From Nannocystales bacterium (GTDB taxonomy: Bacteria > Myxococcota_A > Polyangia > Nannocystales > Nannocystaceae), in contig JBOEGF010000048.1 in assembly GCA_050633305.1 (NCBI GenBank), positions 1-17,879 of the forward strand: a stretch of 17,879 nucleotides of DNA, given 5' to 3'. The notes under the pieces were generated by a model. That model was not told where the DNA came from. It did no database searches and was given only the letters and a program-made list of their open reading frames with translations. The position numbers were made by a program, and so were the translations under genes. This document shows positions 237-14,930 of the stretch, piece after piece; position 1 is the first letter of the stretch; every line of letters begins with the position of its first letter.

Positions 237-1784
237 TCACGGAACCGTGTCCGCCCCTGCGTAGTCCATCGCACCGTCGGTGTTTGGCCGGGTGTCGCCA
301 TCGAAGTCGAACGGCGGGTCACCGTCTTCCCAGATGGCGATGTCCGCGAACTCGGTTTGGCCTGCGGCGGTCAGCCGGAAGTTGGCACCCGCCACGCTCT
401 CGAACCATCCGGGGATGAGGGCGCCTGCATTCTCGTTGCCTGCAACAGCCTCGTCGAACGCGGAATTCGAAGCATCGAGAACGCTGCAATCGATGGAACT
501 CGCATCAGAACCGACAAGGATGCTGTTGCGAACGACCGCGGACCCGCCGTTGCACTGAAGGGAGTCCGCGCCGTCGCCATCGTTCGCGACGATGCTCGAG
601 TACAGGATGCTCAGCTCGCCCGCAGATTCGATACCGGTCGTGGATGCAAACTGGCCGCCGTTCAGGCCCACCATGCAGTTGCGAAGGAACCCACTCGTCC
701 CCGCGGCCAGCGTGATGCCGCCGCCGGTGTTCTGAGCCACCCGTGTGCTGTCCGCGTACAGCGTGCCCGAGGCCTCCGCTGAGATGCCCACGTCGTCTGT
801 GTTGGCGATCAGCTCCATGCGGTGCAGGTAGACGGTCGAGCCCGCACCGGTCACCGTGACGGTGGGGTTGCCACCTGCGCCACGGACTTCCCGCTCGGCG
901 GCGCTATCCGAGACGATGGCGATGGTCTTCCCGCCGTCGACCGTCACCGTGTGGTTACCTCCGCCGCCCGTGAGCAAGATGGTGTGCTCCGCTCCATCGG
1001 CAACCGCGCCGATCGCCGCCTGAATGGCGCCGTTGCTGCCAGCATCGACCTCGCTCACGTTCGCCGCGTCTGCCGAGAAGCATGCTCCCGTTGCGATGTT
1101 GCACGCGTGCAGGTCGATGTCTTGGCACTCCTCGTGGAACGAGCACCCCACGCACGTGTTAATCGCCGCGTCGCACAGCGGCGTCTCACCTCCGCACGCG
1201 CTCGAGTCCTCGGCCGTGCACTGCACGCAGGACGTCCCCACGCACAGCGGCAGCGCCTCGTCGAGCGTCGCGCACGACTCATCCGGCACCGCTGTCGCGT
1301 CGCAGGTCGAGCAGGCTCCGTCCACGCAGAACGGTGCGGCCGGGCCCATGCATGGCACGGTCTCGGAACACTCCGGGCCCGTCGTCGCGCTCGGCTCCTC
1401 CGTGTCGGTCTCAGGCTCCACCGTCGTGCTCGAAGAATCCGTTTCGCCGCCGCTGCTTGTGCTCGCGTCGGCGATCGTCGTCTCTTCTTCGACGCACGAA
1501 GTGTCGTCGGCGATGGCGTTTCCTCGGCCGCAGGGGCTGTAGCACTCGTCTGCAGGGCGTTCGGGGACGCAGCCGTCGATGTCATCCTCGATGTCTGCGA
1601 CGCAGTCCTTGAGTCCGAACGTGCAGTAGTTCCGCGAGCCGTCGGGGTACTTTTCCGCGCAGAACGAATCTCCGTCCTGCGCTCCACTGCAATAGTCGGG
1701 GCTGAGGGCAGTCCAGGTCTGGAGGCATGAGGTGCCCGCGGCAAGGCCGAGCGTAAGGGCGAGTAGAGCTGTTGTGCGGTGCAT
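237..1784 (-). CDS. Cys-rich secreted (lipo)protein with C-terminal right-handed beta-helix (pectin-lyase-like) region, 515 aa
   Basis: Signal peptide ends in a lipobox-like AGTSC. Two Cys-rich regions are separated by a Ser/Thr/Glu-rich linker. The C-terminal half has beta-helix-like repeats (NTGGGI, NCMVGLN, YSSIVAN, VRNSIL) and ends in DFDGDTRP...DYAGAD, typical of beta-helix C-terminal caps. An AAGGA RBS precedes the ATG. Confidence 0.8.
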   Translation of the reverse strand: MHRTTALLALTLGLAAGTSCLQTWTALSPDYCSGAQDGDSFCAEKYPDGSRNYCTFGLKDCVADIEDDIDGCVPERPADECYSPCGRGNAIADDTSCVEEETTIADASTSSGGETDSSSTTVEPETDTEEPSATTGPECSETVPCMGPAAPFCVDGACSTCDATAVPDESCATLDEALPLCVGTSCVQCTAEDSSACGGETPLCDAAINTCVGCSFHEECQDIDLHACNIATGACFSADAANVSEVDAGSNGAIQAAIGAVADGAEHTILLTGGGGNHTVTVDGGKTIAIVSDSAAEREVRGAGGNPTVTVTGAGSTVYLHRMELIANTDDVGISAEASGTLYADSTRVAQNTGGGITLAAGTSGFLRNCMVGLNGGQFASTTGIESAGELSILYSSIVANDGDGADSLQCNGGSAVVRNSILVGSDASSIDCSVLDASNSAFDEAVAGNENAGALIPGWFESVAGANFRLTAAGQTEFADIAIWEDGDPPFDFDGDTRPNTDGAMDYAGADTVP

Positions 1785-1795
1785 GGTCTCGTTCC

Positions 1796-2605
1796 TTAGA
1801 ATCGTCCGGTCAGTCGCAGGCCAGAAAAACTGGGGGAAGCGTCAAGCTGTACGCGAGTGGTCTTCTTGCGCGGCTTCTTCGTCCTGGCTATGCCCACGGC
1901 GATGAGGGCGGCTCCAGCGGCGAGCGCTACACCGCCGACGACAATGAATCCGGTTCCGCGTTGTGAATGATCGACGTAGTTGTCGGAGGTGGGGTTCTCG
2001 GACTTGGATCTGAGCGTGCCTCGGGAGAGGTCGACCGCGCCTGCTATCCCGAAACCCAGGCCTGCTGCAGCAACGGCGGCGCCTACGGAAATGCTTGCGA
2101 GCCCCCACGGGTCCCGTGTTGTCGTGTCGCTCTTTCCCTCAGGTGTTTGCTCTGGTGCTTCCGCATGCTCTGTTTCCTCTTCTCGAGGGATCAGATGCAT
2201 CACGTCGGGGAGTCCGCTGAGGGCGCAGCCGATAAGTTCCGCCTCGCCTTTCTGCAGGCAGCCGATGATCTTGTAGTCGCCGACCCTCTCTCCGTCGACC
2301 TGCACCTCGATGTGCGTGGCGTAGTCGCTTACGGCCTTGTCGGGCTGCACCTCCTCGGAGGCGTTGACCACCTGAAAGACCACCGTCGTGTTCGATGTTT
2401 CGTCGACCGTGACTCCACGTTTTTCAAGCTCCTCGATTGCCCGGCGCTCGAACTCGGGTTTGAGCCGCTCGATTCGGGCCGGATAGTCTCGTTTGAAGCG
2501 CGTCTCAACCGCGACGGCTTGGTAACGAGGCTCGGCCGAGGCTGGCGAGGCGATCGTCCACACGATGAGGGCTGCGAGGCCGCTTCGATATTGGTTCGAA
2601 TTCAT
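1796..2605 (-). CDS. Secreted/membrane hypothetical protein, about 269 aa: signal peptide, globular domain, two C-terminal hydrophobic helices, basic linker and terminal beta-hairpin ending GRF
   Basis: Start reassigned from 2692 to ATG 2605, which has a GGAGGAG RBS and an ATGA overlap with the stop of the upstream kinase. N-terminus is a signal peptide (LAALIVWTIASPASA). Gly/Ala-rich helices are LASISVGAAVAAAGLGFGIAGAV and FIVVGGVALAAGAALIAVGIA. C-terminus is VQLDASPSFSGLRLTGRF. Confidence 0.75.
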   Translation of the reverse strand: MNSNQYRSGLAALIVWTIASPASAEPRYQAVAVETRFKRDYPARIERLKPEFERRAIEELEKRGVTVDETSNTTVVFQVVNASEEVQPDKAVSDYATHIEVQVDGERVGDYKIIGCLQKGEAELIGCALSGLPDVMHLIPREEETEHAEAPEQTPEGKSDTTTRDPWGLASISVGAAVAAAGLGFGIAGAVDLSRGTLRSKSENPTSDNYVDHSQRGTGFIVVGGVALAAGAALIAVGIARTKKPRKKTTRVQLDASPSFSGLRLTGRF

Positions 2606-4266
2606 AGCTCCTCCGTGGAGATCTTTCGGTAGCACTCGTTGTTCAGCCGTACAAGAACTGGAGAGCTGTGCCCCAGGGTTTCTTGAGCGCACGCTGCATA
2701 TCGTCCGAGCTGCATGAGGGCGTTCGCTCGCAAGCGAGTTCTCTCAGTCTTCGAGGGCCAGCAAGACGCTTTCTCCGTGGACGCCAGGACATCCTTCCAC
2801 TGCTTGCTGTTGGCTGCGGCCTTTGCTTCCCCGCGCCGTTCTGCGCATGACGGTGGTGGGGGTTGAGTGGCTTTTCCCTTCTCCGGGGCTGGCGGCGGCG
2901 TGGGCTTCCGAACCTTTGTCTTGCGAGGGGGCTTCGCCGAGGAATCTTGGATGGGCTTAGGTGGGCCTGTGGCGGGCTCGATGTCGATGGGCTCGATGTC
3001 GATGGGTTCGACCTTGGGCTCAGGTTGTGGCTCGGCTGGCGTCTCGGTCAAACCCTCTGGTTGGAGGGCTCCGAGCTGTGATGGCAGGCTTCGCATGATG
3101 GGTGCCGCGGTCGTGCCGGGAGCGGGCAGGGCCCATATGGCGACTAGGCCCGCGAACAAGCCGAGGCAGAGGGTTCCTCCGATGACCGCCAAGCGAAGTG
3201 GCCATGAGGAGGGCACCAGTTCGGATACTGATTCCTGGGGGCTGGGCTCTTGGGGGGTGGGCTCCCGAGGTGTCGCTTCGGGAGGAGTGGCCGTGTTTGG
3301 GAGCGGCTGGACAACGTCGTTCGCTTCTTCCGGCTCGTCCTCTTCCGACCGAGCGAACGACGGTGCCGGGCCGGAGTGAAGGTCACGGATGCGCTTGGCG
3401 AGTTCGGCCGCTGTTGGGCGTTCGTCCGGATCGGTCCCAAGCATGCTGTCCAGCGCGTCGGCGAGTTCTGGCGGGGTTGAGCGACGCATGCGCAGGACAG
3501 GCGGAATTTTCTCCGTCAATTTCTTCTTGAGAATGGAGCGGTCCGCGACGTGCCCAAAAGGAGGGGAGCCCGTGAGTACTTCGTAGAGGGTGGCCCCGAG
3601 GGCATAAATGTCGAAGCTGCAACGGGGGCGAACGCCCGTGCCCTGCTCGGGGCTCATGTAGCGCTTGGTGCCGATGATTAGACGGTTTTCTGTTAGGTCA
3701 GGGCTGCGAGGTTCTTCGCCCTCTCCGGTCGCGAAGGCAAGTCCTAGATCGATGAGGACCGCGGTTCCGTCGTCTCGGACCATGATGTTCTCTGGCTTGA
3801 TGTCTCGGTGCACGACGCCGCGTTCGTGCAGGTGTTCGAGCGCATTGAGAAGGTCGTGGGTGATCCGGATGGTGGCATCGAAGGGGAAGCGACCCGAGTG
3901 GAAGATGATTCGCTCCTTGAGCGAGCGGCCGCGGATGAAGTTGGTGACGAGGTATGGCGAGGAATCGTAGGGGTGCTCAGGGTGGGCGAGCGTCCCGCGG
4001 TCGGTGGCTTGGGCGATGCCTCGTTCTGGGGAGAGTCGGGCGCCGATGCGGATCTCGTTCTCAAAGCGCTTTAACAGACCCGGGTCTTCGCCCGGTTTTG
4101 CGATCTTGACAGCGACCTCCGTATCAAGTCTCAGGTCTGTGGCTCGGAACACGGCGGCGAAGCCTCCGTGGTCGACGAAGGCATCAAGTCGATATCGCTC
4201 ACCGAGCAAAAGACCTTCGAGCTGTCGAGCTGTTTGTGCTTCGGCTTCTGGGTCGCGAGGTTGCAT
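2602..4266 (-). CDS. Membrane Ser/Thr protein kinase (Hanks-type) with Pro-rich linker and Cys-containing TPR-like extracytoplasmic domain, 554 aa
   Basis: Kinase motifs: HGGFAAV (degenerate Gly loop), VAVK, HRDIKPENI, DLG (DFG variant), GTKRYMSPEQ, DIYALG. TM helix LAVIGGTLCLGLFAGLVAIWAL is followed by a Pro-rich region and a helical domain with four Cys. Confidence 0.95.
   Translation of the reverse strand: MQPRDPEAEAQTARQLEGLLLGERYRLDAFVDHGGFAAVFRATDLRLDTEVAVKIAKPGEDPGLLKRFENEIRIGARLSPERGIAQATDRGTLAHPEHPYDSSPYLVTNFIRGRSLKERIIFHSGRFPFDATIRITHDLLNALEHLHERGVVHRDIKPENIMVRDDGTAVLIDLGLAFATGEGEEPRSPDLTENRLIIGTKRYMSPEQGTGVRPRCSFDIYALGATLYEVLTGSPPFGHVADRSILKKKLTEKIPPVLRMRRSTPPELADALDSMLGTDPDERPTAAELAKRIRDLHSGPAPSFARSEEDEPEEANDVVQPLPNTATPPEATPREPTPQEPSPQESVSELVPSSWPLRLAVIGGTLCLGLFAGLVAIWALPAPGTTAAPIMRSLPSQLGALQPEGLTETPAEPQPEPKVEPIDIEPIDIEPATGPPKPIQDSSAKPPRKTKVRKPTPPPAPEKGKATQPPPPSCAERRGEAKAAANSKQWKDVLASTEKASCWPSKTERTRLRANALMQLGRYAACAQETLGHSSPVLVRLNNECYRKISTEEL
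2974..3011. repeat. 15-bp tandem repeat (GGGCTCGATGTCGAT x2 plus a partial copy) encoding EPIDI repeats in the kinase linker
   Basis: Read directly from the sequence; the protein reads VEPIDIEPIDIEPA. Confidence 0.8.
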
Positions 4267-4272: not shown

Positions 4273-5874
4273 TCAGGGGCCGAGGAGCAGGCCTGCGGCT
4301 AGGCCTGCGAGGAGGAATATGACGCATGCCGCGACCCAGAGTTTGTACTCGGGGATGCTGTCGAGCGTGTTGAGGAGGTTGGGGGTCGATGCAGCGATGT
4401 CTTCGGGGTCGTTGGGCTCGGTTTCGTGGGCGGAGTTGCGAGGAATGGCGGCGTCGAGTTCCTCCGATGGGGGGCGCTCTGTTTGGTCGTGGTCGGCGGC
4501 AAGAATCACCTTGGCCGGGGGAGCGCCGTCCTTGAACGCCGCAAATGCCTTGTCGTCGTTGAGGATCTTGATCGACCTGGGGTCGTCGAGGTCGAGTGTC
4601 CATCCCTTATTCCGGGAGGCAGGAGGTGCTGGTGCGATATGTGGAGGAGGGAGGACTTGTGTTGTCTCGATAGTGCCCGTGTGGACTCGTGGCCGGATGA
4701 TCGTCGGCTGCGCTTCGTAGAAGCTTTCGGCCGTCGCGTGTCGTGTGGGGCTCTCGTCGTCGAAGTCTGTGGCGACTTGGGGAGAGGGGGGCTGTGCTGC
4801 TCCGCTGGAGGGCGGGGGAACATGAGAGGTCGCGAGGAGCGTTGCAGGACGGGCTGCCGCGGCGATGTCTTCGGGCGTGATGGCCGTCAGGAAGGCCTCC
4901 GTCTTGCCAGAGGTGCTGCGCTTTCCGTAGCGGCTTTGGATGATGTCTTCGAGATCCTGTTGACCTCGAGCGAGGCTGAGTTCAGGTGACTCGGTGATGA
5001 TGTCCAAAAGCTGAGCCCGTGCGACGGGAGCCGAAGGGCGCTCGCTCGCGTCCCGTTCGAGCATATGTTCGAGGAGGTCGACGAGGCTCTCTGGTACGTA
5101 AGAGGCGAACGGGGGGAGGTCGTGGTCGAGGATTGCTTTGAATAGCGGATAGTCTCCGAGGGTAAGTTTGTCTCCTAGAAACTTCTTTCCGTGGAGCATT
5201 TCCCATGCCACCGCGGCGATGCTCCAGATGTCCATCGCCGTGGTTTGCTCTCCACTCTCGATGCCCTCGGGGGATGTGTAGCTGGGCTTTCCGACCAGCG
5301 AGGGTTCTCGCGAGCGCTCGTTGACGGCCGACGACACCCCGAAATCGGTAAGCACCACAGAAACGGTGGGGCGGCGGATGAGAATGTTGTCGGGAGTGAC
5401 ATCACGGTGGATGACCTCCAGCGTCTCGCCGTCCTTCATGGCCGCGTGGTGGAGGTACTGGAGCGCGACAAGGACCTCGTTGAGAAGGTAGACGGATGCG
5501 GAAAGGGGGAGGCGGGCGCCGCTGCGTTGAAGGTCTCTGAGAAGCGTTTTGAGCGTGACGCTGAAAACGAAATCCATCGCGTAGTAGGGGCGGAGAACCC
5601 CATCGATGTCGTGGATACCTACGTCTCTGATGGCGACGAGGTGAGGGTTCGACAGGCACGACATCAGTTCCATTTCGCGGCGGAATCGGTCCTCCGAGGC
5701 TTCGTCGAGTTCGAGTGTGGGGTACTTGATGGCGACGGGGATCTTGATACTGCCGTCGATCTTGAGTGCTTGATAGACGACGCCCATCCCTCCTTGCCCA
5801 AGGCGCTCCCCGATGGAGTAGTTTCCAACGATACGCCCCGAGAGGTTGGTTGTTTTGTTGGGGGGCGTCGTCAT
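4273..5874 (-). CDS. Ser/Thr protein kinase (Hanks-type, myxobacterial HRDVTPxN type) with C-terminal membrane anchor, about 533 aa
   Basis: Motifs LGQGGMGVVY, VAIK, HRDVTPDNIL, DFG, GKPSYTSPE, DIWSIA. A low-complexity linker leads to a single terminal TM helix (LWVAACVIFLLAGLAAGLLLG). Start placed at ATG 5874 (MTTPPNK) rather than the non-ATG 5934. Confidence 0.93.
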   Translation of the reverse strand: MTTPPNKTTNLSGRIVGNYSIGERLGQGGMGVVYQALKIDGSIKIPVAIKYPTLELDEASEDRFRREMELMSCLSNPHLVAIRDVGIHDIDGVLRPYYAMDFVFSVTLKTLLRDLQRSGARLPLSASVYLLNEVLVALQYLHHAAMKDGETLEVIHRDVTPDNILIRRPTVSVVLTDFGVSSAVNERSREPSLVGKPSYTSPEGIESGEQTTAMDIWSIAAVAWEMLHGKKFLGDKLTLGDYPLFKAILDHDLPPFASYVPESLVDLLEHMLERDASERPSAPVARAQLLDIITESPELSLARGQQDLEDIIQSRYGKRSTSGKTEAFLTAITPEDIAAAARPATLLATSHVPPPSSGAAQPPSPQVATDFDDESPTRHATAESFYEAQPTIIRPRVHTGTIETTQVLPPPHIAPAPPASRNKGWTLDLDDPRSIKILNDDKAFAAFKDGAPPAKVILAADHDQTERPPSEELDAAIPRNSAHETEPNDPEDIAASTPNLLNTLDSIPEYKLWVAACVIFLLAGLAAGLLLGP

Positions 5875-6068
5875 CGGTATCACGTTCCTGTGCGGGATCC
5901 GGGCCGCCGGTCTTCGGGGGGAAAAGTAGAACAATCCTAAGCCCGGGGAGCTGGCGGAGTGCTCGGTGAAAGTGTACCGTTCACGGGACAGTGTGTCAGG
6001 TGATGGACGTCCGGAAGATGCGTGTGGAGTTGACGGGGACCCTCTCTCAGCGGCGAAGGGGGGAGGTC

Positions 6069-7355
6069 ATGGCGCCGTGTGCCAACCGCGTTCGGTTTCG
6101 GGTTCGCCCAGCTTCGGGGGGGCGAGGGCGAAGCGTGGAGGTGGAAGGGGACGTTGTGACGGCCGGCCGGGCGCCCGAGAACGACCTTGTGCTCGATGAC
6201 CCTGAGGTCAGCGTCCTCCATGCGGAGTTTCGGCTTGTTCCGGGCGGGGCGGAGGTGCGAGACCTGGGGAGCACGAACGGCGTCTGGCACGGGGACGTGC
6301 GTCTTGACGTTGGCCTCGTTCCCGAAGGGGCCGAGGTGCGGATGGGTAGTTTTCTCGTTGGGATACGAAAGGTGTCCGAGACTGAAGAGCCGCTCTCCAG
6401 TCGACGTGCGTTCGGCCAGTTCGTCGCGGTGGGGACGGAAATGTCACGCCTCTTTGCCAAGCTGGGGCGCCTCTCAAAATCGCCATGGCCTATCCTCGTT
6501 CAGGGCGACACGGGGGTCGGAAAGGAGTTGATCGCGCAAGCAATACGCGAGCATTCCAAGAGAGCGAGCGGGCCGTACCATGCGCTGAACTGCGGAGCGC
6601 TGCCCCCGTCACTCATCGAGGCCGAGTTGTTTGGTCACGATGCAGGCGCGTTCACGGGGGCCAAAGTCGCCAAGCGAGGGGTCTTCGAGCGCTCGTCGGG
6701 AGGGACGGTGTTTCTGGATGAGATCGGTGAGCTTCCGCTCTCTCAACAAGCCGCGCTGCTTCGTGTGCTTGACCCGGGCATGGTGAGGAGACTGGGGGAG
6801 GATGGCTCGGAGCGGCCCGTCGATGTTCGCGTGATCGCAGCAACGAACCGAGATCTGCGGAAGATGGTGAACGAGGGGACGTTTCGGGCAGACCTGTACT
6901 TCCGGCTCGCCGTTGGCGTCGTGCAGATTCCTCCTCTTCGGGAACGCTCGAAAGGGAACATCGCCGCGCTGCTCAAACTGTTTTCTCAGGGTGTTGGTGA
7001 GGAGCTTGGCGTGGATATTGTTTTCTCTCGCGATGCGCAGAAGGCTCTGGAGCAGTACCCGTGGCCGGGAAACGCGAGAGAGCTGCTGTCCTTCGTTCGT
7101 GCCAGCGCTCTGGAGACCCCGGTCGAAGGCTCGCGAGTCTTGGTTACGAGGCGTGTCGTGGGCGAAGTGCTGCGGGATGGTTTCGTTGTGAGCGCGGTTG
7201 GAGGAGCCGACACGACGGAATCGTTCGACCAGTTCACGAAGGGATGTCAGCAGCGGTACGTCATGACGGTCGTCGAAGAATGTGAGGGGAACAAGGCGGC
7301 AGCAGCAAAGCGACTCGGGATTTCACGGAGCCAGCTCTACCGTTTGCTCCCTTGA
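6069..7355 (+). CDS. FHA-domain sigma54-dependent transcriptional activator (FHA-AAA+-Fis HTH), about 428 aa
   Basis: FHA motifs GR, SVLH, DLGSTNG. Walker A GDTGVGKE, EAELFGH, intact GAFTGA, Walker B FLDEIGELP, FRADLYFRL, WPGNAREL. C-terminal HTH GNKAAAAKRLGISRSQLYRLL. ATG 6069 is preceded by a GGGAGG RBS. Confidence 0.96.
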   Translation: MAPCANRVRFRVRPASGGRGRSVEVEGDVVTAGRAPENDLVLDDPEVSVLHAEFRLVPGGAEVRDLGSTNGVWHGDVRLDVGLVPEGAEVRMGSFLVGIRKVSETEEPLSSRRAFGQFVAVGTEMSRLFAKLGRLSKSPWPILVQGDTGVGKELIAQAIREHSKRASGPYHALNCGALPPSLIEAELFGHDAGAFTGAKVAKRGVFERSSGGTVFLDEIGELPLSQQAALLRVLDPGMVRRLGEDGSERPVDVRVIAATNRDLRKMVNEGTFRADLYFRLAVGVVQIPPLRERSKGNIAALLKLFSQGVGEELGVDIVFSRDAQKALEQYPWPGNARELLSFVRASALETPVEGSRVLVTRRVVGEVLRDGFVVSAVGGADTTESFDQFTKGCQQRYVMTVVEECEGNKAAAAKRLGISRSQLYRLLP

Positions 7356-7445
7356 GTGTTCCCGCTGAGGGACGCTTCTGTGTCTGCTGTGGGATTCTTT
7401 GCGGGGGTGACGTTGTAAGTGCCTGAGATGACAGACACTTGATCC

Positions 7446-7461: not shown

Positions 7462-7631
7462 TTGTTGTCGGCCGTGCTTGTTCAGCGCATCGAAGACAAG
7501 GCAGAGGGAGAACGGGCGCTCCGCTTGATGAGGTGGCGATCGCCGCCACGCGGAGTGGCGTTCAGGTCGAACGGGGCCCTTGTGGTGGGAGACGCCATCT
7601 CGGGCGCCATTCAGACCGAACAGGGGCAGGG

Positions 7632-7808
7632 ATGACCCGCAGCATCCTCCCGCCGTTCCTGCGCCGAGAGTCGCCTTCAGGTCGTCTCTCGGCATCGTCG
7701 AAGCGCCCGGGGTTCTCGCTACCTCCGACGCCAGCGATCGACCCCTGGATGCCCAGCGGGGTCCCTCTGGCCGAGCTCGCTCGCATGACCGAGGGGGCGG
7801 TGCGATGA
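7632..7808 (+). CDS. Small Pro/Ser-rich hypothetical protein, 58 aa
   Basis: ATG follows a purine-rich AGGGGCAGGG. Its TGA overlaps the next ATG (ATGA at 7805-7808). Confidence 0.45.
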   Translation: MTRSILPPFLRRESPSGRLSASSKRPGFSLPPTPAIDPWMPSGVPLAELARMTEGAVR

Positions 7809-8044
7809 GCCGGCCGAGAATGTGGATGCAGGTCGGGACCTGGCCGCCGCCACCGGAGGCTCGTCCAAGAGCGGGACACGTCCAGTGGCAACCCCCACCT
7901 GTGTTCGCGCAGTGGCGTCCGTCTCGGAACTCGCAGGTTCAGCGGCGTCGATGGATCGCAGCGAGCATTGTCTCTGCTGCTGCCTTCGGAGCGACCGCGG
8001 GCAGCCTCGCGACGGCCATGCTGATCGGTGCGGTGTGCGGATGA
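7805..8044 (+). CDS. Small Pro/Trp-rich protein with C-terminal TM helix, 79 aa
   Basis: ATGA overlaps at both ends (7805 and 8041) and a GAGGGGG RBS. Sequence MSRPRMWMQVGTWPPPP...WIAASIVSAAAFGATAGSLATAMLIGAVCG. Confidence 0.6.
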   Translation: MSRPRMWMQVGTWPPPPEARPRAGHVQWQPPPVFAQWRPSRNSQVQRRRWIAASIVSAAAFGATAGSLATAMLIGAVCG

Positions 8045-10410
8045 CCCTTCTCCCCGTCAGCGTCTCCACGCACCTGTGCACTGCCGATGGAGAAGAGCCC
8101 GTACTCGCGACTCGGCGTTTCGAGTTGGTCGAGCGCATCGACCATCCCTTCGAGGCCACCGTCGAGTTGGTCACCGAAGACACGGGACTCGACGTTCGCT
8201 CTCTGCTCGGCGCTCGGGCCGTTCTCGAACTCGACCGACCGGACGTGACCGCGCGAACGCTGGGCGGCGTGGTCACGCGCTCGGAGTACATCACGACCCG
8301 TGGCCGGCAGCTCTTCGTGCGGCTGGTCGTCGAGCCTTCGCTGGCACTACTCCGCTACTCGACGCGGCGCCGCATCTTCGCCGACTTGACTTTGCTCGAA
8401 GTGCTGGAGGCCGTGGCCGGTCCGGTCTTCACCGCTCACGGGGGAACGTGGGACGCCTCGCGCCTGCGGAGAAAGCCGGAGCCACGGGACTACGTCGTCC
8501 AGTACGACGAGACCGACCTTGAGTTCGTACTGCGGCTGCTCTCGGAGTCTGGGCTGTGCTTGCTGCACGGCATGAGCGAGGAGGAGGGCGAACCGCTCTA
8601 CGTTCTGCTCGACAGCAACGACGCACTGCCGAGCTTCATCATGGACCCGAGCATCCCGGCCGACTCCACTCCGTGGACGGTGTCGTTCGTACCCGATGCT
8701 GAAGAGGAGGCGGACGAGCCGAACGTGCAATACCTCGGGCGCTGGGACGGCCTGCATGCGCAGGGGACTACGACCGCGGCGCGCAACTGGAAGACGCTTG
8801 GGGGCACCCGGTTTGCGACGAGCATCGAGCTGGGCGACGACCGTGGGCGGGAAGGGCACGCGTGGAGCTATCACCCGGGCCGTCTGGACGAGGGGAAGGG
8901 GAGCGAAGGCCCCCTCCACAACGATACCGAGGCGTGGGCGGCACGACTGCTCGAGGAGCAGCGCGCTGGCGGAGTGGAGGTCACGGGCGCGAGCAACGTG
9001 GCGGACTTCACCGCAGGCGCAACGTTCGAGCTGCAGGAGCACCCGCATGTTGATCTCGACCAGCGCTACGCGGTGCTGAGCGTCGTTCACCAGGCGGACT
9101 TTCCTGAGGCGGAACTCGCGGACGGACACCGAGCCCCGAGCTATACAAACCGCTTTGTGGCTGCGCCTTTGGATGCTGGCCCCGTGCGGCCGCCGCTACG
9201 GCCCAAGCCTCGCGCAACGGGCATCGAGTCGGCCACGGTCGTGGGCCCCGATGGCGAAGAGGTGCACACCGATGCGCTCGGCCGCGTGCAAGCTCGCTTT
9301 CACTGGGACGACGCGCCGAGCCAGACGTGCTGGCTACGGGTGATGTCGCCATGGGCCGGCCCCGGCTACGGAGCGAGCTTCATTCCCCGCATCGGAATGG
9401 AGGTCGTGGTCGGTTTCTTGGGCGGCGACCCGGACCGCCCCGTCGTGACGGGCTGTCTGTACACGGGCACAAACACGCCGCCGGGCGCTCTGCCGGAGAC
9501 CAAAACCTGCACCACGCTGCGGACACAGAGTACGCCCGGCGGAGAGGGGTTCAACGAGTTGCGCTTCGAGGATGCCGCCGGAAGCGAAGAGGTGTTCATG
9601 CATGCCCAGCGCAACCAGCGAACGGTTGTGCGTGCGGCTCAGTCCACGAACGTCGGCGCCTCGCGGTCCCTGTCGGTGGGCAAGGACTCCACCCGCACCA
9701 TCGGCGGCAATGAAACCGTGCAAGTGGGAACGCCCAACGCCGAGGAGAAGGGCGAGCTTCAGGTCTCCGTGACCGGAGGCGAGCTGCGCAAGATTGGGGA
9801 CATTCACGCGCTGGAGACGGGGTCCGCGTTCTGGACCGCTGATGAGGCCATCGTGGCCAACGCGGAGGAGCGTGTCTGTTGGTCTTGTACGTCCGGCCCC
9901 CAGAGCTTGGCGGGGGTGCCTACCGGAGGCACGGTCCTCACGCTCGAACCGAAAACGGCGAAGCTCGAGGCGCTGGAGAGCATCGAGCTGCGGGTCGGCA
10001 AGACCTCGCTCAAGTTGACGCCCCGAGGCATCGAGCTTCGTGGCGATCTCATCACGGCGAAAGCCGATGAGCAGGTCTGGGTCGCTGCACCCGGAGGGCG
10101 GTTGTCCTGCAACAAGAGGGAGGCGGAGGTCTCCGGTGGGGCAGGGCGCGAGTCCTTCGTAAAACTGCGGGCCGATGCTCTGGACTGCAAGGCAAGGGGG
10201 CTGCTCCGTCAGTCGGGTAAGTCGGTCATTGTGGCTGGGACCGACGTCGTGCGGACCCTGTCGAACTCCGGCATCGAGCTGGAGGCCGGCGGAGACGTCG
10301 GCGTGAAGACAAAGGCGGGGCACGTCACGGTCGCCGCGGGCTCGATGGACCTTCACGCTCCTGAGGGCATCGTCGATGTCCGGGGGTCCCGAATCAAGCT
10401 GAACAGCTGA
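8041..10410 (+). CDS. vgrG: Type VI secretion spike protein VgrG (TssI) with extended beta-strand-rich C-terminus, about 789 aa
   Basis: Hallmark motifs RRIF, DYVVQYDETDLEFVLRLLSESG, SATVVGPDGEEVHTDALGRVQARFHWD, CWLRVMSPWAGPGYGASFIPRIGMEVVVGFLGGDPDRPVVTGCLY and NELRFEDAAGSEEVFMHAQRN, then gp5-like repeats, ending VRGSRIKLNS. Start taken as ATG 8041 (ATGA coupling). Confidence 0.97.
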   Translation: MTLLPVSVSTHLCTADGEEPVLATRRFELVERIDHPFEATVELVTEDTGLDVRSLLGARAVLELDRPDVTARTLGGVVTRSEYITTRGRQLFVRLVVEPSLALLRYSTRRRIFADLTLLEVLEAVAGPVFTAHGGTWDASRLRRKPEPRDYVVQYDETDLEFVLRLLSESGLCLLHGMSEEEGEPLYVLLDSNDALPSFIMDPSIPADSTPWTVSFVPDAEEEADEPNVQYLGRWDGLHAQGTTTAARNWKTLGGTRFATSIELGDDRGREGHAWSYHPGRLDEGKGSEGPLHNDTEAWAARLLEEQRAGGVEVTGASNVADFTAGATFELQEHPHVDLDQRYAVLSVVHQADFPEAELADGHRAPSYTNRFVAAPLDAGPVRPPLRPKPRATGIESATVVGPDGEEVHTDALGRVQARFHWDDAPSQTCWLRVMSPWAGPGYGASFIPRIGMEVVVGFLGGDPDRPVVTGCLYTGTNTPPGALPETKTCTTLRTQSTPGGEGFNELRFEDAAGSEEVFMHAQRNQRTVVRAAQSTNVGASRSLSVGKDSTRTIGGNETVQVGTPNAEEKGELQVSVTGGELRKIGDIHALETGSAFWTADEAIVANAEERVCWSCTSGPQSLAGVPTGGTVLTLEPKTAKLEALESIELRVGKTSLKLTPRGIELRGDLITAKADEQVWVAAPGGRLSCNKREAEVSGGAGRESFVKLRADALDCKARGLLRQSGKSVIVAGTDVVRTLSNSGIELEAGGDVGVKTKAGHVTVAAGSMDLHAPEGIVDVRGSRIKLNS

Positions 10411-11750
10411 TGGCGGACGACTCCACATTGTTCGAGGGCCTTGGTCTGCCCGTGCTCGATGACGCCGCCCGTGCCCGGGCACGAACCCGGGAGCGGATGG
10501 CTGATCTTGTTCGTCAAGGGCAGGTGCCTTGGCCGAGCAAGGTCCAGCGGCCCCGCTCGCCGAGTGAGGAACTCAGCCAGTGCACGGGGCTCCTGACGCA
10601 TGCGGACATCTTTGGGACGACCCCGTGTCTCGAGGGCTGGGCCGACGAGCACTATCCCGACCTCGACTCGGAGAGGGAAGAGGACGAGCCTGAGGAGGAT
10701 TGGGATGTCCCGTGGTGGATCGTTGGGCCCATTGGGGGCGGCCTGATCGTTTGGGAACTGCTCGATAGGCCTGTTGGGTTCGGCTCGGGGGAGATTTCGT
10801 GGGAGTTCGATGGCTTTGAGATCGACGGGATCCCCTGGACGGTCGAGACGCTGTACAAGCCTGGGCCGCCTTTGGCAGCCCGGGTCGGCGAGATGACGCT
10901 GCACGGGGGGAAGGCGCTCCCCGGGCCGGGGTCTCTCGATGTTTACATCGGTGGCCAGCGAGCGCTGACCGTTGCGCACTCGGTCGCTACATGTGAGCGG
11001 ACCACCACGCTGGGCGTCCCCCATGCCCCTCAGCCGAAGGCTTGGACGACGACGAACACCTCGGTGGTCGTCAACGGGGAGCTGCTGCTGCGAGCGGGTG
11101 ATTGCGTCTTGGAGTCCCCCGGAGGCCCCAATCCCCTCGTCAGCGGAATGCCTACGGTGTTTGTCGGCCCTCCCGCGAATCCGGTGATGGTCCAGGAAGA
11201 GGGGTACGTGGGACTCGACTTCTTCATCGACGACCTCGAACACGTGGGTTGGTCGGGCGGGGAAATCACTTTGGAGGCTTCGGTGAGCTGGACCTACCAG
11301 GACGCGGCCAAAGGGTTGGCGGCGATCGGTTTGTTTCACCTGGGGGCCGCCAACCCGATGGTTGCGCCCGTGACCACGTGGGGCGCCCGATCGATCTTGG
11401 CGTCGATGAACAAGCCCGAGATCAAGCTGAGGTTCGAGGTCGAGGGCGGGACGGTCATCGCCGACACGCGCGAGGACTACGTGACCGTGGGTCCGGGCGG
11501 GGTGAAGCATAGGACCAAGCGCGAGCGCTGGGAGTTCGACTTGTGGGACTTCTTCGACGAACGCTCGGCGGAGGTCGATCCGGCGAAGCCGTTTCCGCCC
11601 ATCAAGAAGGACGAAAAGAGCGGCACGAAGACCACGCCGATCGACAAGGAGACGACCCGGATCGACGAGGACGAGATCGAGGTGGGCCCCTTTCGCAAGA
11701 AGAGCCAAACACACGACGCCGACGAGGCGCCCAAGGACTGGGACGAGTGA
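10410..11750 (+). CDS. PAAR-domain protein with N- and C-terminal extensions (candidate specialised T6SS effector), 446 aa
   Basis: Internal PAAR-like domain at about aa 153-253 (LAARVGEMTLHGG...DVYIGGQRALTV...C...PH...SVVVNGELLLRAGD...PNPLVSGMPTVFVG). TGATG overlap with vgrG. Hydrophobic segments lie before and after the PAAR domain. Confidence 0.85.
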   Translation: MADDSTLFEGLGLPVLDDAARARARTRERMADLVRQGQVPWPSKVQRPRSPSEELSQCTGLLTHADIFGTTPCLEGWADEHYPDLDSEREEDEPEEDWDVPWWIVGPIGGGLIVWELLDRPVGFGSGEISWEFDGFEIDGIPWTVETLYKPGPPLAARVGEMTLHGGKALPGPGSLDVYIGGQRALTVAHSVATCERTTTLGVPHAPQPKAWTTTNTSVVVNGELLLRAGDCVLESPGGPNPLVSGMPTVFVGPPANPVMVQEEGYVGLDFFIDDLEHVGWSGGEITLEASVSWTYQDAAKGLAAIGLFHLGAANPMVAPVTTWGARSILASMNKPEIKLRFEVEGGTVIADTREDYVTVGPGGVKHRTKRERWEFDLWDFFDERSAEVDPAKPFPPIKKDEKSGTKTTPIDKETTRIDEDEIEVGPFRKKSQTHDADEAPKDWDE

Positions 11751-11752
11751 CC

Positions 11753-12793
11753 ATGAAGAACGAACAAGCCCTGTTTCGCCATCCTGAGCCCAACCCCGAA
11801 GCGCTGGCGCAGTCGCACGAGGTGCGGTGCATCGAGATGAACTTTGACGCGAGCGCGAGCTTCGCGGTGCCCGTGCCGCGAACGATGGTGACGGCACGTC
11901 CGAGCCGGCACGTTCCCGAGGCGCCTGGTCGCCCGATGCCGCTGGCGGTGTTCGGGGAGCCGCCGAGCCTCGACGGGCCGCAGCTGCGGGTGAGCTCGCA
12001 AACCCTGCGGTGGGAGGTCGACCCGATGGAGTGGCTTCGTTGGCAGGGGACGCTTCAGGGGTGGCGCGTTGCCCTGGTGAAACGTCATCCGGGGCCCAAG
12101 GGTCCGCGCTACGAGTTGGGTGCTCTACGAGAGAAGGATGGGCGCGTGGAGGTGCGTCGGACGATGGCGACCCGTTCCGGGGCGCGATTGATGCGATGCG
12201 ATGCCGTGGCACCGTTGGAGGACTGGTCTACGCACCACGATGCGCTGTGGCACTCCATTGAGGGGTTCCGGCTCGGCCGATGCGAGCGAGCCTCAATCGA
12301 GTCGCTCGCTGGGCACGAGGGGCCTCTGCTGGGCTTCGCGGTGCCGGGGTCGTGGGACGCTCGCGGCGTTGGTGATGTGCGTCGCATGGTGTGGAGCGCC
12401 CAGCTTGCCGACCACGCCCAGCGTGGCGGAGCACTCAAGCTCCACGTGCAGGTTCTGAAGGAGGCGCCCGATGCCCAGGCTCGCCGGGACTCCCTATGGC
12501 GGGAGCTGAAGCGCGACGGTGTGAAGCTGGGAGCGGTGCTTACGGCGGAGCGTTCCGAGTTCACGAAGTCCGTGCCTGGGTGGGTCGGGCAGTGGCAGGC
12601 GGCGGTCGGTTCCGACGGTCGAGAGGGGGTCGTGGTGTTGGTGCAGCGTGAGGACGATGGCCTGGCCGTCGACTACCTGATGGTGGCCCCGGCGGCCGGA
12701 ACGGAACACGTCGACTGGATGCGAGCGAGCAGGGCGCTCGACGTGGCGATTGCGACCACGGACCTTCGTGGTGCGGAAGCGGAGGCGGCATGA
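11753..12793 (+). CDS. Hypothetical protein with two PsbP/DcrB(DUF1795)-like repeats; candidate effector chaperone/adaptor, about 346 aa
   Basis: Two halves share a pattern: FAVPVP/FAVPGSW start, central amphipathic helix, strands ending in AVAP/MVAP, and a terminal Trp-containing helix. It lies directly behind the PAAR gene; alternative start GTG 11747 overlaps that stop. The fold assignment is inference. Confidence 0.6.
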   Translation: MKNEQALFRHPEPNPEALAQSHEVRCIEMNFDASASFAVPVPRTMVTARPSRHVPEAPGRPMPLAVFGEPPSLDGPQLRVSSQTLRWEVDPMEWLRWQGTLQGWRVALVKRHPGPKGPRYELGALREKDGRVEVRRTMATRSGARLMRCDAVAPLEDWSTHHDALWHSIEGFRLGRCERASIESLAGHEGPLLGFAVPGSWDARGVGDVRRMVWSAQLADHAQRGGALKLHVQVLKEAPDAQARRDSLWRELKRDGVKLGAVLTAERSEFTKSVPGWVGQWQAAVGSDGREGVVVLVQREDDGLAVDYLMVAPAAGTEHVDWMRASRALDVAIATTDLRGAEAEAA

Positions 12794-12945
12794 GACCGGC
12801 TCAACGCTACGGGCAGCGGACGACGCGGCTCGACATGCAGCTGCGCGGCCGGCCCTGGAGTCACGTGGCGCCAGGTGTTCGATGGCGAGGCGGATTTCGG
12901 AGCGCTGGGGTGCCCGTACGAAGGGAGGCGATGAGCCATGGATGA
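12790..12945 (+). CDS. Small basic hypothetical protein, 51 aa (below the ORF-track cutoff)
   Basis: MRPAQRYGQRTTRLDMQLRGRPWSHVAPGVRWRGGFRSAGVPVRREAMSHG. GGAGG RBS at 12781, ATGA overlap with the upstream gene and ATGGATGA overlap with the downstream gene. Confidence 0.45.
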   Translation: MRPAQRYGQRTTRLDMQLRGRPWSHVAPGVRWRGGFRSAGVPVRREAMSHG

Positions 12946-13483
12946 ATGGGAAACACAGGAAGGCGCGATGCCGCAGAGAAACCGGCCGGGGACTCCTCGG
13001 GGCACGTGGGGCGAAGCTAGGCCCGCCGTGTTGCGATTGGCTCGTGAGCAGGCCGAGGCGGAGGCTGTGAGATTCGAGGGGTTGCTGTCGACCTTGGTCG
13101 CTCTCCTCGAGTGCAAAAGGGGCGACGCGAAGGCGATCGAGGGCGTGAAGGAACAGATGCGTGCCCTCCTTCCTTCGGTCGGAGGAGGGATGGCTGACCT
13201 GCCCGCGGATGCCCCCAGGGGAACGGTGTCCTGCGGGGACCTGCGGCGCGAGCCCGACGGCCGATGGTTCTTTGGAACCACGTATTTGGGACGGGACGGT
13301 GAGCCGATGGCGGTCATGGTCGGCTCTCTCGGCGACCGCTTGGGCGTGGTCGCAGCACGTCTTGCGGAGGCCCTCGGTCAGACGTGCGATGCGATGGACG
13401 GGTGGGGCGATGCGCTGGCGGTCCAGACTGGCCGGGACACGCTGCGCCGGTTCGAGCGGTGGAAAGTGGGGCGCTCATGGTAA
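12938..13483 (+). CDS. Hypothetical cytoplasmic protein, 181 aa
   Basis: AAGGGAGG RBS upstream and a stop overlapping the next start (ATGGTAA). No signal peptide or recognisable motif. Confidence 0.65.
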   Translation: MDEWETQEGAMPQRNRPGTPRGTWGEARPAVLRLAREQAEAEAVRFEGLLSTLVALLECKRGDAKAIEGVKEQMRALLPSVGGGMADLPADAPRGTVSCGDLRREPDGRWFFGTTYLGRDGEPMAVMVGSLGDRLGVVAARLAEALGQTCDAMDGWGDALAVQTGRDTLRRFERWKVGRSW

Positions 13484-14244
13484 GACGAAGATGCATGATG
13501 AGGTCGTGCCTCCTCGCTGCGCTCACGCTTGCCGCGTCCTTCGGGTGTGGTGGCGGCGAAGGCAGCAGGCTTCGTCTCGAAGCGCCTCCGGAGCTGACCT
13601 CGATGCTCGAGGACGTGATTCGGACCTGCGGCGAGGGTTCAGTCGAGGCCTGTCGCGCGGCCCAGAACGCGCCTTCGGGGGCCTCTGAGTACGAGGCTGT
13701 GTTCCCCCCGGGGTTACTGAAAATGTCGGTGGTCGAGTCGTGTCGCTCGCAGAACTTTGCCGAGCTCGAGGCGGTCGTGTTCCTCAAGTCCGGGACGACG
13801 CACATCCGCGCCGGGTTCGTTCGCTACGAGGACGGGGCATGGTTCAGCAAGCGAATCGCGACCGTGGATGGGTCAACGCCGGAGCTGTGCGCGGACCTTC
13901 CGAATGTTCACACCGCCGAGGAAGCGAAGGCAGCCCTCGCGGACAAGGATGACTGGGTGCGTTGGTCCCGTCAGGACGGGCGCGACATCGCAGACTTCGC
14001 GCACCTGATGGACTACGGATGTGGGGTCAAAGGGCTCTTGGTCGGGGAGTCGTCCGACCAGGAGCCGATGCCCTTCGAGGTGAGGTGCTGGCACACCGAC
14101 GGGTTCCCTGTGTCAGGAAAGAGTCTGCCGCCGCGCTTCAATCTCGAAGACGCGCCCTACCTCTACGTCAAGCTGGCATTCACCGACGGGACTTCCACCG
14201 CGGTCGAGAAGGTCGAGAATCCGTATCGCAAGGGAGGGGCGTGA
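13477..14244 (+). CDS. Lipoprotein, about 255 aa, C-terminal domain paralogous to the next gene (candidate immunity/accessory)
   Basis: MVRRRCMMRSCLLAALTLAASFGC has a lipoprotein-type signal. The C-terminal domain reads WVRWSRQDGRD...L..YGCG...PF..C...VKLAFTDGTST...ENP. Confidence 0.75.
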   Translation: MVRRRCMMRSCLLAALTLAASFGCGGGEGSRLRLEAPPELTSMLEDVIRTCGEGSVEACRAAQNAPSGASEYEAVFPPGLLKMSVVESCRSQNFAELEAVVFLKSGTTHIRAGFVRYEDGAWFSKRIATVDGSTPELCADLPNVHTAEEAKAALADKDDWVRWSRQDGRDIADFAHLMDYGCGVKGLLVGESSDQEPMPFEVRCWHTDGFPVSGKSLPPRFNLEDAPYLYVKLAFTDGTSTAVEKVENPYRKGGA

Positions 14245-14930
14245 TGACGATGGTGTTGAGGCAAGTCCGCAGGGGGCTGGGCGCTTTGCTCTGCTCGGTG
14301 TTCTTCTTGTGTGCCATGGCCGCCTGTGAGTCCAGCGTGGACCGCCGGACGAAGAACAGCGGTATCGAGATGTGGGCCCGGCCCGAGCCCTCGAAGAACG
14401 ACGGCTGGGGCATCTCTTTCGGGGGAATCCGGGGGCGCGCGACCGATGTTGTCGTGCGCTTCGGCGACGAGCGAGAGGAGACCTTCCGTCATCCGAGGTT
14501 TGAGCTCCCCGCCGATATCGAGGGACCGATCGATATCTGGCTGCTCGAGTACAAGATCAGCGGCAAAACCCACCGGGGGCCGTTTCGGTTTCACTTCGAC
14601 CCCCAGGCTATGCATGTCAAGAACGCCAAGGACGACCTCGACATGCTTCAAACTCAATGGGTTGCGTGGCGTCGGTTGGGGGATGCGGACCTTTTGTACT
14701 CGACGTTCCTCGTGGGCCATGCCTGCGGCATCGACCACGTCGACTATGGGTTTGGCGAAGAGCCCGACCAGCGGCTGCCTTTCGCCGAGTGCGGAGAGTC
14801 GCTTGTTGATGCTGACATCTACCTTCGTTTGCCGAAAGGCAAACACTCCCACGTCGTCGTCCGCGTCACGTTTGCGGATGGGGAGACGACGCCGATTCGT
14901 CGGTTTCCGAACCCTGACTTCGGTGGCTAA
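14244..14930 (+). CDS. Lipoprotein, about 228 aa, C-terminal domain paralogous to the previous gene
   Basis: AAGGGAGG RBS and GTGATG overlap with the previous stop. Signal MTMVLRQVRRGLGALLCSVFFLCAMAAC. The C-terminal domain reads WVAWRRLGDADLLY..FL..HACG...PF..C...VRVTFADGETT...PNP. Confidence 0.75.
   Translation: MTMVLRQVRRGLGALLCSVFFLCAMAACESSVDRRTKNSGIEMWARPEPSKNDGWGISFGGIRGRATDVVVRFGDEREETFRHPRFELPADIEGPIDIWLLEYKISGKTHRGPFRFHFDPQAMHVKNAKDDLDMLQTQWVAWRRLGDADLLYSTFLVGHACGIDHVDYGFGEEPDQRLPFAECGESLVDADIYLRLPKGKHSHVVVRVTFADGETTPIRRFPNPDFGG

Follow-up and report, generated by a model that had tools for sequence, protein, structure and literature searches.

A predicted kinase-coupled sigma54 switch at orphan vgrG islands of Nannocystaceae

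The 17,879-nt contig JBOEGF010000048.1 of a Nannocystales bacterium (assembly GCA_050633305.1), hereafter the window, carries two Ser/Thr kinase genes, a divergent gene for a sigma54 enhancer-binding protein (EBP) with an FHA domain, and an operon encoding VgrG and PAAR, spike or tip proteins of a type VI secretion system (T6SS). We read this module as a sigma54 switch that is self-contained, amplifies itself and governs a single set of T6SS spike genes, an account that we hold with slightly better than even confidence. It is a prediction from sequence, and on that evidence the system is real, conserved and assembled from known parts in a new arrangement.

In the proposed mechanism, an extracytoplasmic cue would reach kinase B through a four-Cys domain, with kinases A and B acting as a pair, a step suggested by topology only. 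A kinase would then phosphorylate a Thr in the N-terminal tail of the EBP, and the phospho-tail would dock in an FHA domain, as in DgcB, GarA and OdhI, licensing the AAA+ domain. The EBP would bind its own palindromic operator at two sigma54 promoters, one driving the kinase–kinase–g2–g1 operon (positive feedback) and the other, assisted by IHF, driving an operon of two leader open reading frames (ORFs), vgrG, PAAR and g8. The spike would finally be loaded on a core T6SS encoded elsewhere, in keeping with established T6SS biology, and cargo would be exchanged downstream of the promoter.

Two operons around an FHA-type activator

The window is the entire contig C48 of the host genome (G000; 11.0 Mb, 65.9% GC, 92% complete). 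Genes of this genome were called with a purpose-built codon-model caller, and families were assigned by Pfam and TIGR profile scans, which covered 15 window proteins. C-numbers denote contigs of the host genome and L-numbers the loci or regions compared, from the host genome, family relatives and metagenomes. The features of the module are as follows.

237–1784, minus strand: g1, last gene of the kinase operon; secreted or lipid-anchored Cys-rich protein with a predicted beta-helix region
1796–2605, minus strand: g2, third gene of the kinase operon; signal peptide, soluble domain, two hydrophobic segments and a C-terminal G-x-F (hydropathy, C-termini across loci)
2602–4266, minus strand: kinase B, Hanks-type; one transmembrane (TM) segment, Pro-rich linker and extracytoplasmic helical domain of ~75 aa (Pfam, motifs)
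4273–5874, minus strand: kinase A, Hanks-type; C-terminal TM anchor, without an extracytoplasmic domain in the window copy (Pfam, motifs, hydropathy)
5891–5906, minus strand: predicted sigma54 −24/−12 element of the kinase operon (GG 5905–5904, GC 5893–5892), 17 nt before the ATG; score 7.3
5972–5989, no strand assigned: predicted EBP operator of the kinase promoter, GTGTWCC-N6-GGGAC type, just upstream of the EBP start (palindrome-pair search)
6018–7355 (start 6003 or 6018), plus strand: FHA–AAA+–helix-turn-helix (HTH) sigma54 activator, the EBP, with an N-terminal V-E-L-T-G-T-L tail (Pfam, motifs, module EBP clade)
7356–7373, no strand assigned: predicted EBP operator of the tip promoter, of the same type as at 5972–5989 (palindrome-pair search)
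7416–7428, plus strand: IHF-like site with two mismatches to YAANNNNTTGATW, the Vibrio hcp promoter consensus (motif match; PMC5963220)
7446–7461, plus strand: sigma54 −24/−12 element of the tip operon, TGG-N8-TTGCT, 171 nt before leader ORF 1; score 7.6
7632–7808, plus strand: leader ORF 1, 58 aa, conserved, no family (ORF call, homology)
7805–8044, plus strand: leader ORF 2, 79 aa, hydrophobic C-terminus; overlaps ORF 1 and vgrG
8041–10410, plus strand: VgrG, 789 aa, gp27/gp5 core with a beta-repeat extension (TIGR03361, Pfam)
10410–11750, plus strand: PAAR protein, 446 aa, N- and C-terminal extensions (sub-threshold Pfam match, homologues)
11753–12793, plus strand: g8, two tandem PsbP/Mog1/DcrB-fold domains, without a signal peptide (structure model)

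A sequence-only reading of the window, made without database searches, had described two Ser/Thr kinases divergent from an intact FHA–AAA+–HTH activator, and the profile matches and intact motifs agree with it. Both kinases match Pkinase (E 6e-38 and 3e-36), retain the HRD, DFG/DLG and YxSPE motifs and carry a TM segment, as Hanks-type receptor kinases do, with an extracytoplasmic domain in kinase B only. The EBP matches the FHA, Sigma54_activat, AAA lid and HTH_8 families. Its AAA+ domain has the Walker A and GAFTGA motifs and is followed by the C-terminal HTH expected of a sigma54 enhancer-binding protein, and the phosphothreonine-sensing residues of its FHA domain (G-R..S..H..N: Gly-Arg, Ser-x-x-His and Asn) are all in place. 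All window ORFs are intact, and the host genome encodes rpoN and three HU/IHF-family genes.

The vgrG product scores 399 bits against a TIGR03361 cut-off of 186. The PAAR match of the next protein, at 21.8 bits, lies under the Pfam cut-off of 27, and homologues in the host genome exceed that cut-off; a one-base overlap of the two genes agrees with the coupled vgrG–PAAR operon proposed earlier. Hcp, sheath, baseplate and membrane-complex genes were likewise said to be missing, and none was found among the 15 window proteins scanned. Because the window is a whole contig, calling this vgrG an orphan needed a genome-wide check, and the term holds: a complete core T6SS lies on another contig, C18 (TssA, B, C, E, F, G, J, K, L and M, a ClpV-type ATPase, Hcp, TagF and Fha), so that a vgrG above the TIGR03361 cut-off sits away from a complete core cluster of the same genome. 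No vgrG was seen among the genes scanned in the C18 core cluster; C26 has a second, partial T6SS cluster, which includes a vgrG. The scanned genes of the two core clusters include no EBP; the EBPs sit on islands. Both clusters (L012–L014 on C18, L015–L016 on C26) are flanked by similar FHA-WD40, FHA-LysM-M74 peptidase, Fha and kinase genes. The host genome gave one Hcp match only, and the gene before tssE at L016:4445–5077 has no family.

Sigma54 promoters and locus-specific operators

Candidate sigma54 sites were scored with a matrix trained on the host genome outside the modules, seeded with a consensus and with GG and GC forced, against a background of 4,145 upstream regions. The 'correctly spaced GG-N10-GC' reported before vgrG survives as a site, at 7446–7461, and fails as evidence: we rejected the bare pattern, which matches 337 times in the window (~19 per kb), eight of them in the EBP–vgrG gap. 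The stricter TGG-N8-TTGCW occurs once in the window. Weak alone, the tip site becomes credible through comparison across loci, and a second site, before the kinases, had been missed by the first reading. Three sets of comparisons support sigma54 promoters here, and we regard EBP-dependent sigma54 transcription of both operons, as predicted from sequence, as highly probable.

First, sigma54 sites recur where the module requires them. Among close relatives, a site in the top 5% of the background precedes the first kinase in 9 of 10 loci, the exception being that of the window (11%), and precedes the tip cassette in 9 of 12, all 12 falling within 10.5%; in 8 of the 12 tip promoters the site lies 168–178 nt from leader ORF 1. 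Regions upstream of EBP genes gave 0/19 in the top 5% and also 0/19 in the top 10%, and antisense controls 3/21 and 1/23. Across other genera, the kinase run is preceded by a site in 13 of 21 EBP-bearing loci versus 1 of 10 that lack an EBP (Fisher p 0.009). Nine of 11 regions ahead of tip genes in those genera have no sigma54 site; in most of these site-less regions the tip genes sit after g1, are oriented as it is, and may be transcribed from the kinase promoter as well.

Second, an IHF-like motif ends 14–16 nt upstream of the sigma54 site in 9 of 13 tip promoters, against 1% of the background, and is found at none of ten kinase promoters. In held-out metagenome tip promoters it lies within 12–15 nt in five of seven, one being a near-orthologue of the window. 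The IHF-plus-sigma54 combination occurs at 11 places genome-wide, six of them module promoters. The layout equals that of Vibrio hcp promoters, for which an IHF site and a sigma54 element at a 16-bp interval are described (PMC5963220).

Third, the kinase and tip promoters of a locus tend to share a palindrome. A palindrome-pair search of the window chooses the pair at 5974 and 7358; a weaker second copy of the tip operator, at 7380–7395, was noticed by eye, and the extended pattern occurs six times in 11 Mb, twice in the window. Palindrome sharing between the DNA upstream of the kinase and tip promoters averages 12.8 within a locus versus 11.6 across loci (p 0.002), a palindrome-aware measure gives 13.0 versus 12.0 (permutation p 0.003; 0.007 without L041), and six held-out loci give 12.9 versus 12.1 (p 0.035). 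At L006 and L008 no clear palindrome common to the two promoters was found. A locus-specific operator shared by the two promoters implies positive feedback, with the EBP apparently also driving the kinase operon itself. At L008 (C68), about six tandem 18-nt near-palindromic repeats follow the EBP stop directly (10325–10460), upstream of an IHF-like and a sigma54 site, and are possibly an amplified operator; a similar unit lies ahead of the C17 vgrG.

With palindromic operator, IHF-like site and −24/−12 element, the tip promoter has a full predicted sigma54 anatomy, and the proposal of a sigma54 promoter before vgrG gains support from sequence comparison. At seven core T6SS operon heads and at the C4 and C18 vgrG loci, where gene starts are approximate, no sigma54 site above 4.0 was found, and EBP control of the core T6SS is not supported.

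Low sigma54 scores in the window, together with a truncated EBP ahead of the C17 vgrG and broken g1 and vgrG copies in some relatives, would also suit a silent or decaying paralogue that has weak promoters and lacks a toxin. We consider this very improbable: the window ORFs are all intact, and in the near-orthologue L114 the EBP is 99% identical, versus 84–91% for VgrG, PAAR, g2 and g1, with 0 changes in 97 nt of predicted elements versus 10 in the 307 nt around them, a difference that is suggestive only.

Recurrence across the family and exchange of cargo

The host genome holds three complete copies of the module and four that are partial or have other cargo. C48, C46 and C60 each carry two kinases, g2, g1, the FHA-EBP, vgrG, PAAR and g8, in three different orders. 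On C68, DUF2169, Tox-PAAR, SUKH and TsiV genes come after the kinases and EBP; C65 has an EBP and two vgrG without kinases, C17 a truncated EBP remnant ahead of vgrG, and C16 a kinase operon reaching the contig end. Kinases and EBPs of these copies are only about 35–55% alike, and the copies are therefore not a recent duplication. The genome encodes 45 EBPs, 14 of them with FHA; 4 of the 14 lie within 8 kb of a vgrG versus 0 of the 31 others and 1.3% of random genes (Fisher p 0.007, with paralogues that are not independent).

Conservation of the kinase–kinase/FHA-EBP/vgrG–PAAR neighbourhood among relatives, put forward as a check in the first reading, is supported by sequence comparison, in shuffled gene order. 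Besides the host, 12 genomes were found to bear g8; from 10 of these we retrieved 20 regions surrounding g8 matches, of which 12, from five genomes, hold two kinases, FHA-EBP, vgrG and PAAR together. The other eight comprise three regions at contig ends, one fragment, one that overlaps a counted locus and itself has a second cassette, two with vgrG and without intact kinases or EBP in range, and one with kinases, EBP and g8 and no vgrG. L035 is also complete; L031–L034 were left uncounted, L031 showing g1 and g2 only and the others repeating counted maps. Of 29 metagenome loci, several of them near-copies, we mapped the 23 that match g1 clearly; kinases and EBP are present in 14, and 11 of these have tip genes, vgrG in seven and Tox-PAAR in four, with neither in range in three.

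Independent anchoring used 40 regions picked on g1 alone, the top g1 matches not already covered. An FHA-EBP is present in 15, of which five have tip genes within 20 kb, compared with vgrG in 3 of the 25 regions without an EBP; the count rises to 7 of 15 after flanks were widened for the EBP loci only. The eight tip-less EBP loci have peptidoglycan-binding or peptidase genes, integrases or housekeeping neighbours. The kinase–EBP module is a family-wide unit, often without tip genes (8 of 15), and T6SS tip genes are its frequent, not its sole, cargo.

Sequence comparison supports the view that kinases and EBP are inherited jointly and that VgrG alleles are exchanged. Nucleotide homology of the window to C46 starts at 7552, downstream of the promoter, and the VgrG cores are 94% identical while EBPs and operators differ. 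L005 and L041 have EBP type and operator in common and different cargo; L040 and L041 have cargo in common and different EBP and operator. FHA and HTH identity tracks both kinases (r 0.30–0.35, p 0.001, 20 non-redundant loci), whereas EBP and kinase identity does not track VgrG (r −0.07 to 0.18, 13 loci).

That VgrG ancestry is uncoupled from the EBP, that 8 of the 15 g1-anchored EBP loci have no tip genes and that ParA, integrase and transposase genes occur in module neighbourhoods would all be expected if the kinase–EBP unit governed only the kinase–g2–g1 surface operon and vgrG cassettes merely gathered in island hot spots, expressed independently. Set against this, tip promoters combine the operator type of their own locus with an IHF-like site and a sigma54 site, fixed in spacing, the L005/L041 and L040/L041 swaps keep operator with EBP rather than with cargo, and in genus g15 the tip genes come after g1 in the same direction; we judge such independence quite unlikely.

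In close relatives the leader (7462–7631, ~170 nt) and the two small coupled ORFs (7632–8044) are kept before vgrG. Homology to the C46 copy ends at 12768 and resumes at 15066, which makes 12769–15065 a copy-specific segment, and the label 'effector operon' remains unproven in the window because no toxin domain was found in its proteins. Profile scans found no effector domain in VgrG, and family scans and Foldseek recognised no effector–immunity pair in the window; Tox-PAAR, SUKH and TsiV genes do occur in sister islands. His165 and His205 of the PAAR protein are nearly invariant among homologues, its model is of low confidence (pLDDT 57.6), and Foldseek gave no match at E ≤0.001.

The model of g8 is confident (pLDDT 90.7) and resembles CyanoP (Z 17.4, root-mean-square deviation 2.1 over 141 aa), DcrB (Z 11.3), PA0094 (11.1), TplEi (10.2) and SciW (8.8). 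This PsbP/Mog1-type fold is common to Eag chaperones and to the immunity proteins Tsi3 and TplEi, and on the model g8 is a candidate chaperone/adaptor or immunity protein. It matches no Pfam family at E 0.1, hence no DcrB/DUF1795 profile, a PDB sequence search with its profile gave nothing convincing, and an Atlas search returned clusters without names. Searches detected g8 in 13 of the 72 genomes of the family, which belong to three genera, and not in 300 sampled phylum genomes (six candidates scored per genome).

The fold class of g8 and the ~450-aa length of the PAAR protein recall the Eag (DUF1795)/class II prePAAR pairs. Unlike in those pairs, g8 is a tandem fusion without a DUF1795/DcrB Pfam match, and the PAAR protein has no toxin domain and only weak hydrophobic segments, absent from many homologues. 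Class II prePAAR proteins have an N-terminal AARxxDxxxH split from PAAR by a TM domain (10.1101/2020.10.28.356139); here the AAR motif, at residue 156, is contiguous with the PAAR body, and Glu replaces Asp in the window. A Tse6-like TM-domain effector with g8 as its Eag was rejected on motif position and hydropathy.

Downstream of g8 lie the following features.

12938–14930, plus strand: g9 (12938–13483), g10 (about 13490–14244) and g11 (14244–14930), in the copy-specific segment; hydrophobic N-termini in g10 and g11, no family match for any of the three in profile scans
15207–15915, plus strand: small HTH gene (weak IS481-like match) and a 92-aa partner, usually after g8 in close-relative copies

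A g14-type lipoprotein family is represented at 16207–17301 and 17575–17879, the last copy being cut by the contig end, and has nine matches in the host genome, mostly on island contigs. After the kinase operon in other genera (L065, L067, L071, L089, L069 and L073) we observed M23 peptidase, peptidoglycan-binding, LysM-M74, OmpA and FGE-domain genes, which sometimes precede vgrG and are candidate cell-wall-targeting cargo. ParA and tyrosine-recombinase genes flank several copies, with a tRNA in 2 of 42 sources; a prophage or extracellular contractile injection system was set aside, as no relatives were found in viral contigs. Flanking gene runs in L101 and L105 are mostly without a Pfam family. 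Together with L113 (L101:861–17741, L105:5301–14342, L113:7865–16964) they form co-directional runs of small genes near modules of two genera, almost without Pfam families (one amidase), and are possibly an undescribed mobile-element backbone. Two genomes (L096, L098) have CRISPR-Cas genes (Cas4–Cas1 fusion, Cas2, Cas3) and a reverse transcriptase no more than ~20 kb from modules; L098 has two Cas1–Cas2-sized gene pairs.

Kinase input, known systems and meaning

On balance, and a little above even chance, we take the neighbouring kinases to supply the input of the EBP, with the tail Thr as the most likely route. DgcB of Bdellovibrio is described as becoming active when its N-terminal Thr, once phosphorylated, binds the FHA domain of the protein itself, with hydrophobic residues at −3 and +3 and Glu at −2, as in GarA and OdhI (PMC6733907). 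The window EBP likewise has an N-terminal Thr with hydrophobic −3 and +3 residues and Glu at −2, about 45 residues ahead of the FHA Arg, which gives it the Thr, the hydrophobic +3 residue and the linker distance to the FHA cleft of a DgcB/GarA-type self-tail (PMC6733907). Outputs differ, being a GGDEF enzyme or steric occlusion in those proteins and, as predicted, an AAA+ activator here. The tail segment V-E-L-T-G-T-L is closely matched in L065 and L067, and the EBP therefore probably starts at 6003 or 6018. A strict T-x-T-[ILVM] motif, 28–55 aa ahead of the FHA Gly-Arg (mostly 42–44), occurs in 18 of 34 module EBPs against a background of 2.7%, and a loose form in 24 of 34 against 32%. By analogy, the FHA domain probably binds the N-terminal Thr of the EBP itself, not solely an autophosphorylated kinase, and we infer a DgcB-type phospho-tail switch in module EBPs.

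In a quick tree, 31 module EBPs and one further host-genome EBP form a single clade (SH-aLRT 93), inside which vgrG-linked and unlinked EBPs are interleaved. One module-clade FHA-EBP on C8 (L109:10709–12121) has no kinase, g1 or tip gene within the 20 kb fetched.

Kinase B offers a possible point of entry for the cue. Its extracytoplasmic domain (2605–2859, minus strand) has four invariant Cys, matches no Pfam family and occurs in all but one of 71 other family genomes (70) and in 0 of 297 sampled genomes of other families, which makes it a candidate family-specific sensor domain; envelope sensing by kinase B is inferred from topology only. Window g1 has no Pfam match and does not match the lipobox pattern; its homologues at C46 and C68 match Beta_helix (PF13229), and the family was found in 58 of 72 family genomes. 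Atlas look-alikes of g2 are Myxococcota clusters without names, and those of CsgG/LpoB type score <0.9 and are leads only. We rejected g1 and g2 as cognate sensor partners because they do not track the kinases within the genus, and no cognate partner was identified. Genes of g1 type also occur in tandem, in arrays that reach five or more copies, some of them broken (L038:3505–10141, L087, L088, L092), which suggests a variable surface-protein repertoire.

Several observations weigh against the self-amplifying switch or loosen its parts. The sigma54 sites of the window are among the weakest (7.6 and 7.3, in the 10–11% background tails), its operator was initially noticed by eye, and the IHF pattern was defined after the sequences had been seen. 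Eight of 21 EBP loci in other genera have no site before the kinases, including four vgrG loci (L044, L046, L048 and L050); 8 of 15 g1-anchored EBP loci stay without tip genes despite wider flanks; and no toxin was found in the window cassette by Pfam/TIGR scans or the PAAR structure search. The strict tail motif is absent from 16 of 34 module EBPs, and the FHA Arg is replaced by Ala in 4 of 34 (L005, L036, L040 and L041) and in 5 of 14 metagenome EBPs. Identity of g1 and g2 does not follow the kinases within the genus. The tracking of the kinases by FHA and HTH is a matter of simple identity correlations, to which linkage contributes and which physical linkage alone can yield, and no such tracking of kinase A is seen for the AAA domain (r −0.03). 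Finally, any of ~286 kinase ORFs in the host genome could be the input of the EBP.

The EBP could drive both promoters with the kinases as mere outputs of its regulon, acting for instance in a PpkA-like manner on spike or envelope proteins, and be controlled by another kinase or without phosphorylation. The number of host kinases, the same wiring in the FHA Arg-to-Ala subclade, the C65 copy with EBP and vgrG and no kinase within 5 kb, and a four-Cys kinase run on C18 that precedes a vgrG with a small LuxR-like HTH gene in place of an EBP all speak for it. Against it, the FHA domain co-varies with the kinases whereas VgrG does not, the tail Thr is conserved, and kinases and EBP remain together through many rearrangements; we rate this alternative as rather unlikely. 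The Arg-to-Ala subclade (L005, L036, L040, L041 and L117–L121) has the order EBP–kinase–kinase and mostly keeps the tail Thr. The C18 run (L018:8741–18650; G000 C18:370740–380650) comprises three Ser/Thr kinases upstream of another orphan vgrG, the last with the four-Cys domain, followed by a 135-aa LuxR-like HTH gene before vgrG; no sigma54 site was found at this locus.

The switch that we favour resembles several known systems in part. FHA-EBPs of Myxococcus xanthus share the FHA–AAA+–HTH architecture of the module EBP; Jelsbak et al. reportedly proposed in 2005, in work on fruiting-body development, a link between them and neighbouring Ser/Thr kinases. We know of no vgrG target, operator code or tail switch for the M. 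xanthus proteins. Like PpkA–Fha–PppA, the module ties a membrane kinase and an FHA protein to a T6SS. Unlike the module, that pathway acts post-translationally, in the core cluster and with a phosphatase; here FHA is fused to an EBP rather than standing alone in a core context, both host core clusters have separate Fha genes, and family scans matched no phosphatase among the window proteins.

Orphan vgrG genes and many paralogues are known in myxobacteria (PMC5801462). In systems described elsewhere, one EBP of the main cluster co-regulates orphan hcp/vgrG islands with sigma54 (PMC10482370; PMC8855297; PMC5963220; PMC13584744): VasH–RpoN–IHF does so in Vibrio, with an IHF site ~16 bp from the sigma54 element (PMC5963220), and Sfa2–RpoN in the H2 system of Pseudomonas aeruginosa, the input domain of Sfa2 being GAF (PMC13584744). 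As with VasH and Sfa2, a sigma54 EBP is predicted to activate an orphan vgrG, with an IHF-like site near the sigma54 element. Unlike there, each island has its own FHA-EBP and operator and no hcp, the core operon heads have no sigma54 site by the matrix, and no EBP lies among the genes scanned in the two main clusters.

The nearest precedent for the kinases is PknS–EcfK of Xanthomonas citri, in which a transmembrane Hanks kinase turns on T6SS transcription by phosphorylating a transcription factor (PMC13147305; PMC6653060; PMC13584744). The same logic is predicted here from sequence, with differences: PknS–EcfK is described with an extracytoplasmic-function sigma factor, one kinase and a core cluster, acting through TagK, whereas the module pairs two kinases with an FHA-EBP and sigma54, occurs at orphan tip islands and is predicted to feed back on itself. 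The suggestion that the kinase–EBP–vgrG combination is new stands in part: titles and abstract openings of a mostly open-access literature gave no description of a kinase pair with FHA-EBP and orphan vgrG, or of island-private operators, and Ser/Thr-kinase control of T6SS transcription is already described in X. citri.

Because kinase pair, HTH and operator differ from one paralogous island to the next, the islands would be separately inducible. A bolder extension, to which we give tentative credence, well short of even, is that these are mutually orthogonal kinase switches: each pair would phosphorylate only the N-terminal Thr of its cognate EBP, closure of tail on FHA would activate the AAA+ ring, and a private operator would turn this into a bistable spike decision, with up to about six separately triggered modules per cell and cargo shuffled by recombination behind fixed promoters. 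If orthogonal, the kinase–EBP–operator sets could serve as parts for kinase-controlled gene switches.

The module is also a compact test of how myxobacterial FHA-EBPs become activated: cognate kinases lie next to the EBP, its tail has a candidate phospho-Thr, two target promoters and their operators are predicted, and naturally swapped pairs can serve to control for specificity. The general description of orphan vgrG islands has a single activator regulating them together with the main T6SS; if the present reading is true, island-private sets of kinases, EBP and operator would let the cell pick by local cue which spike to load.

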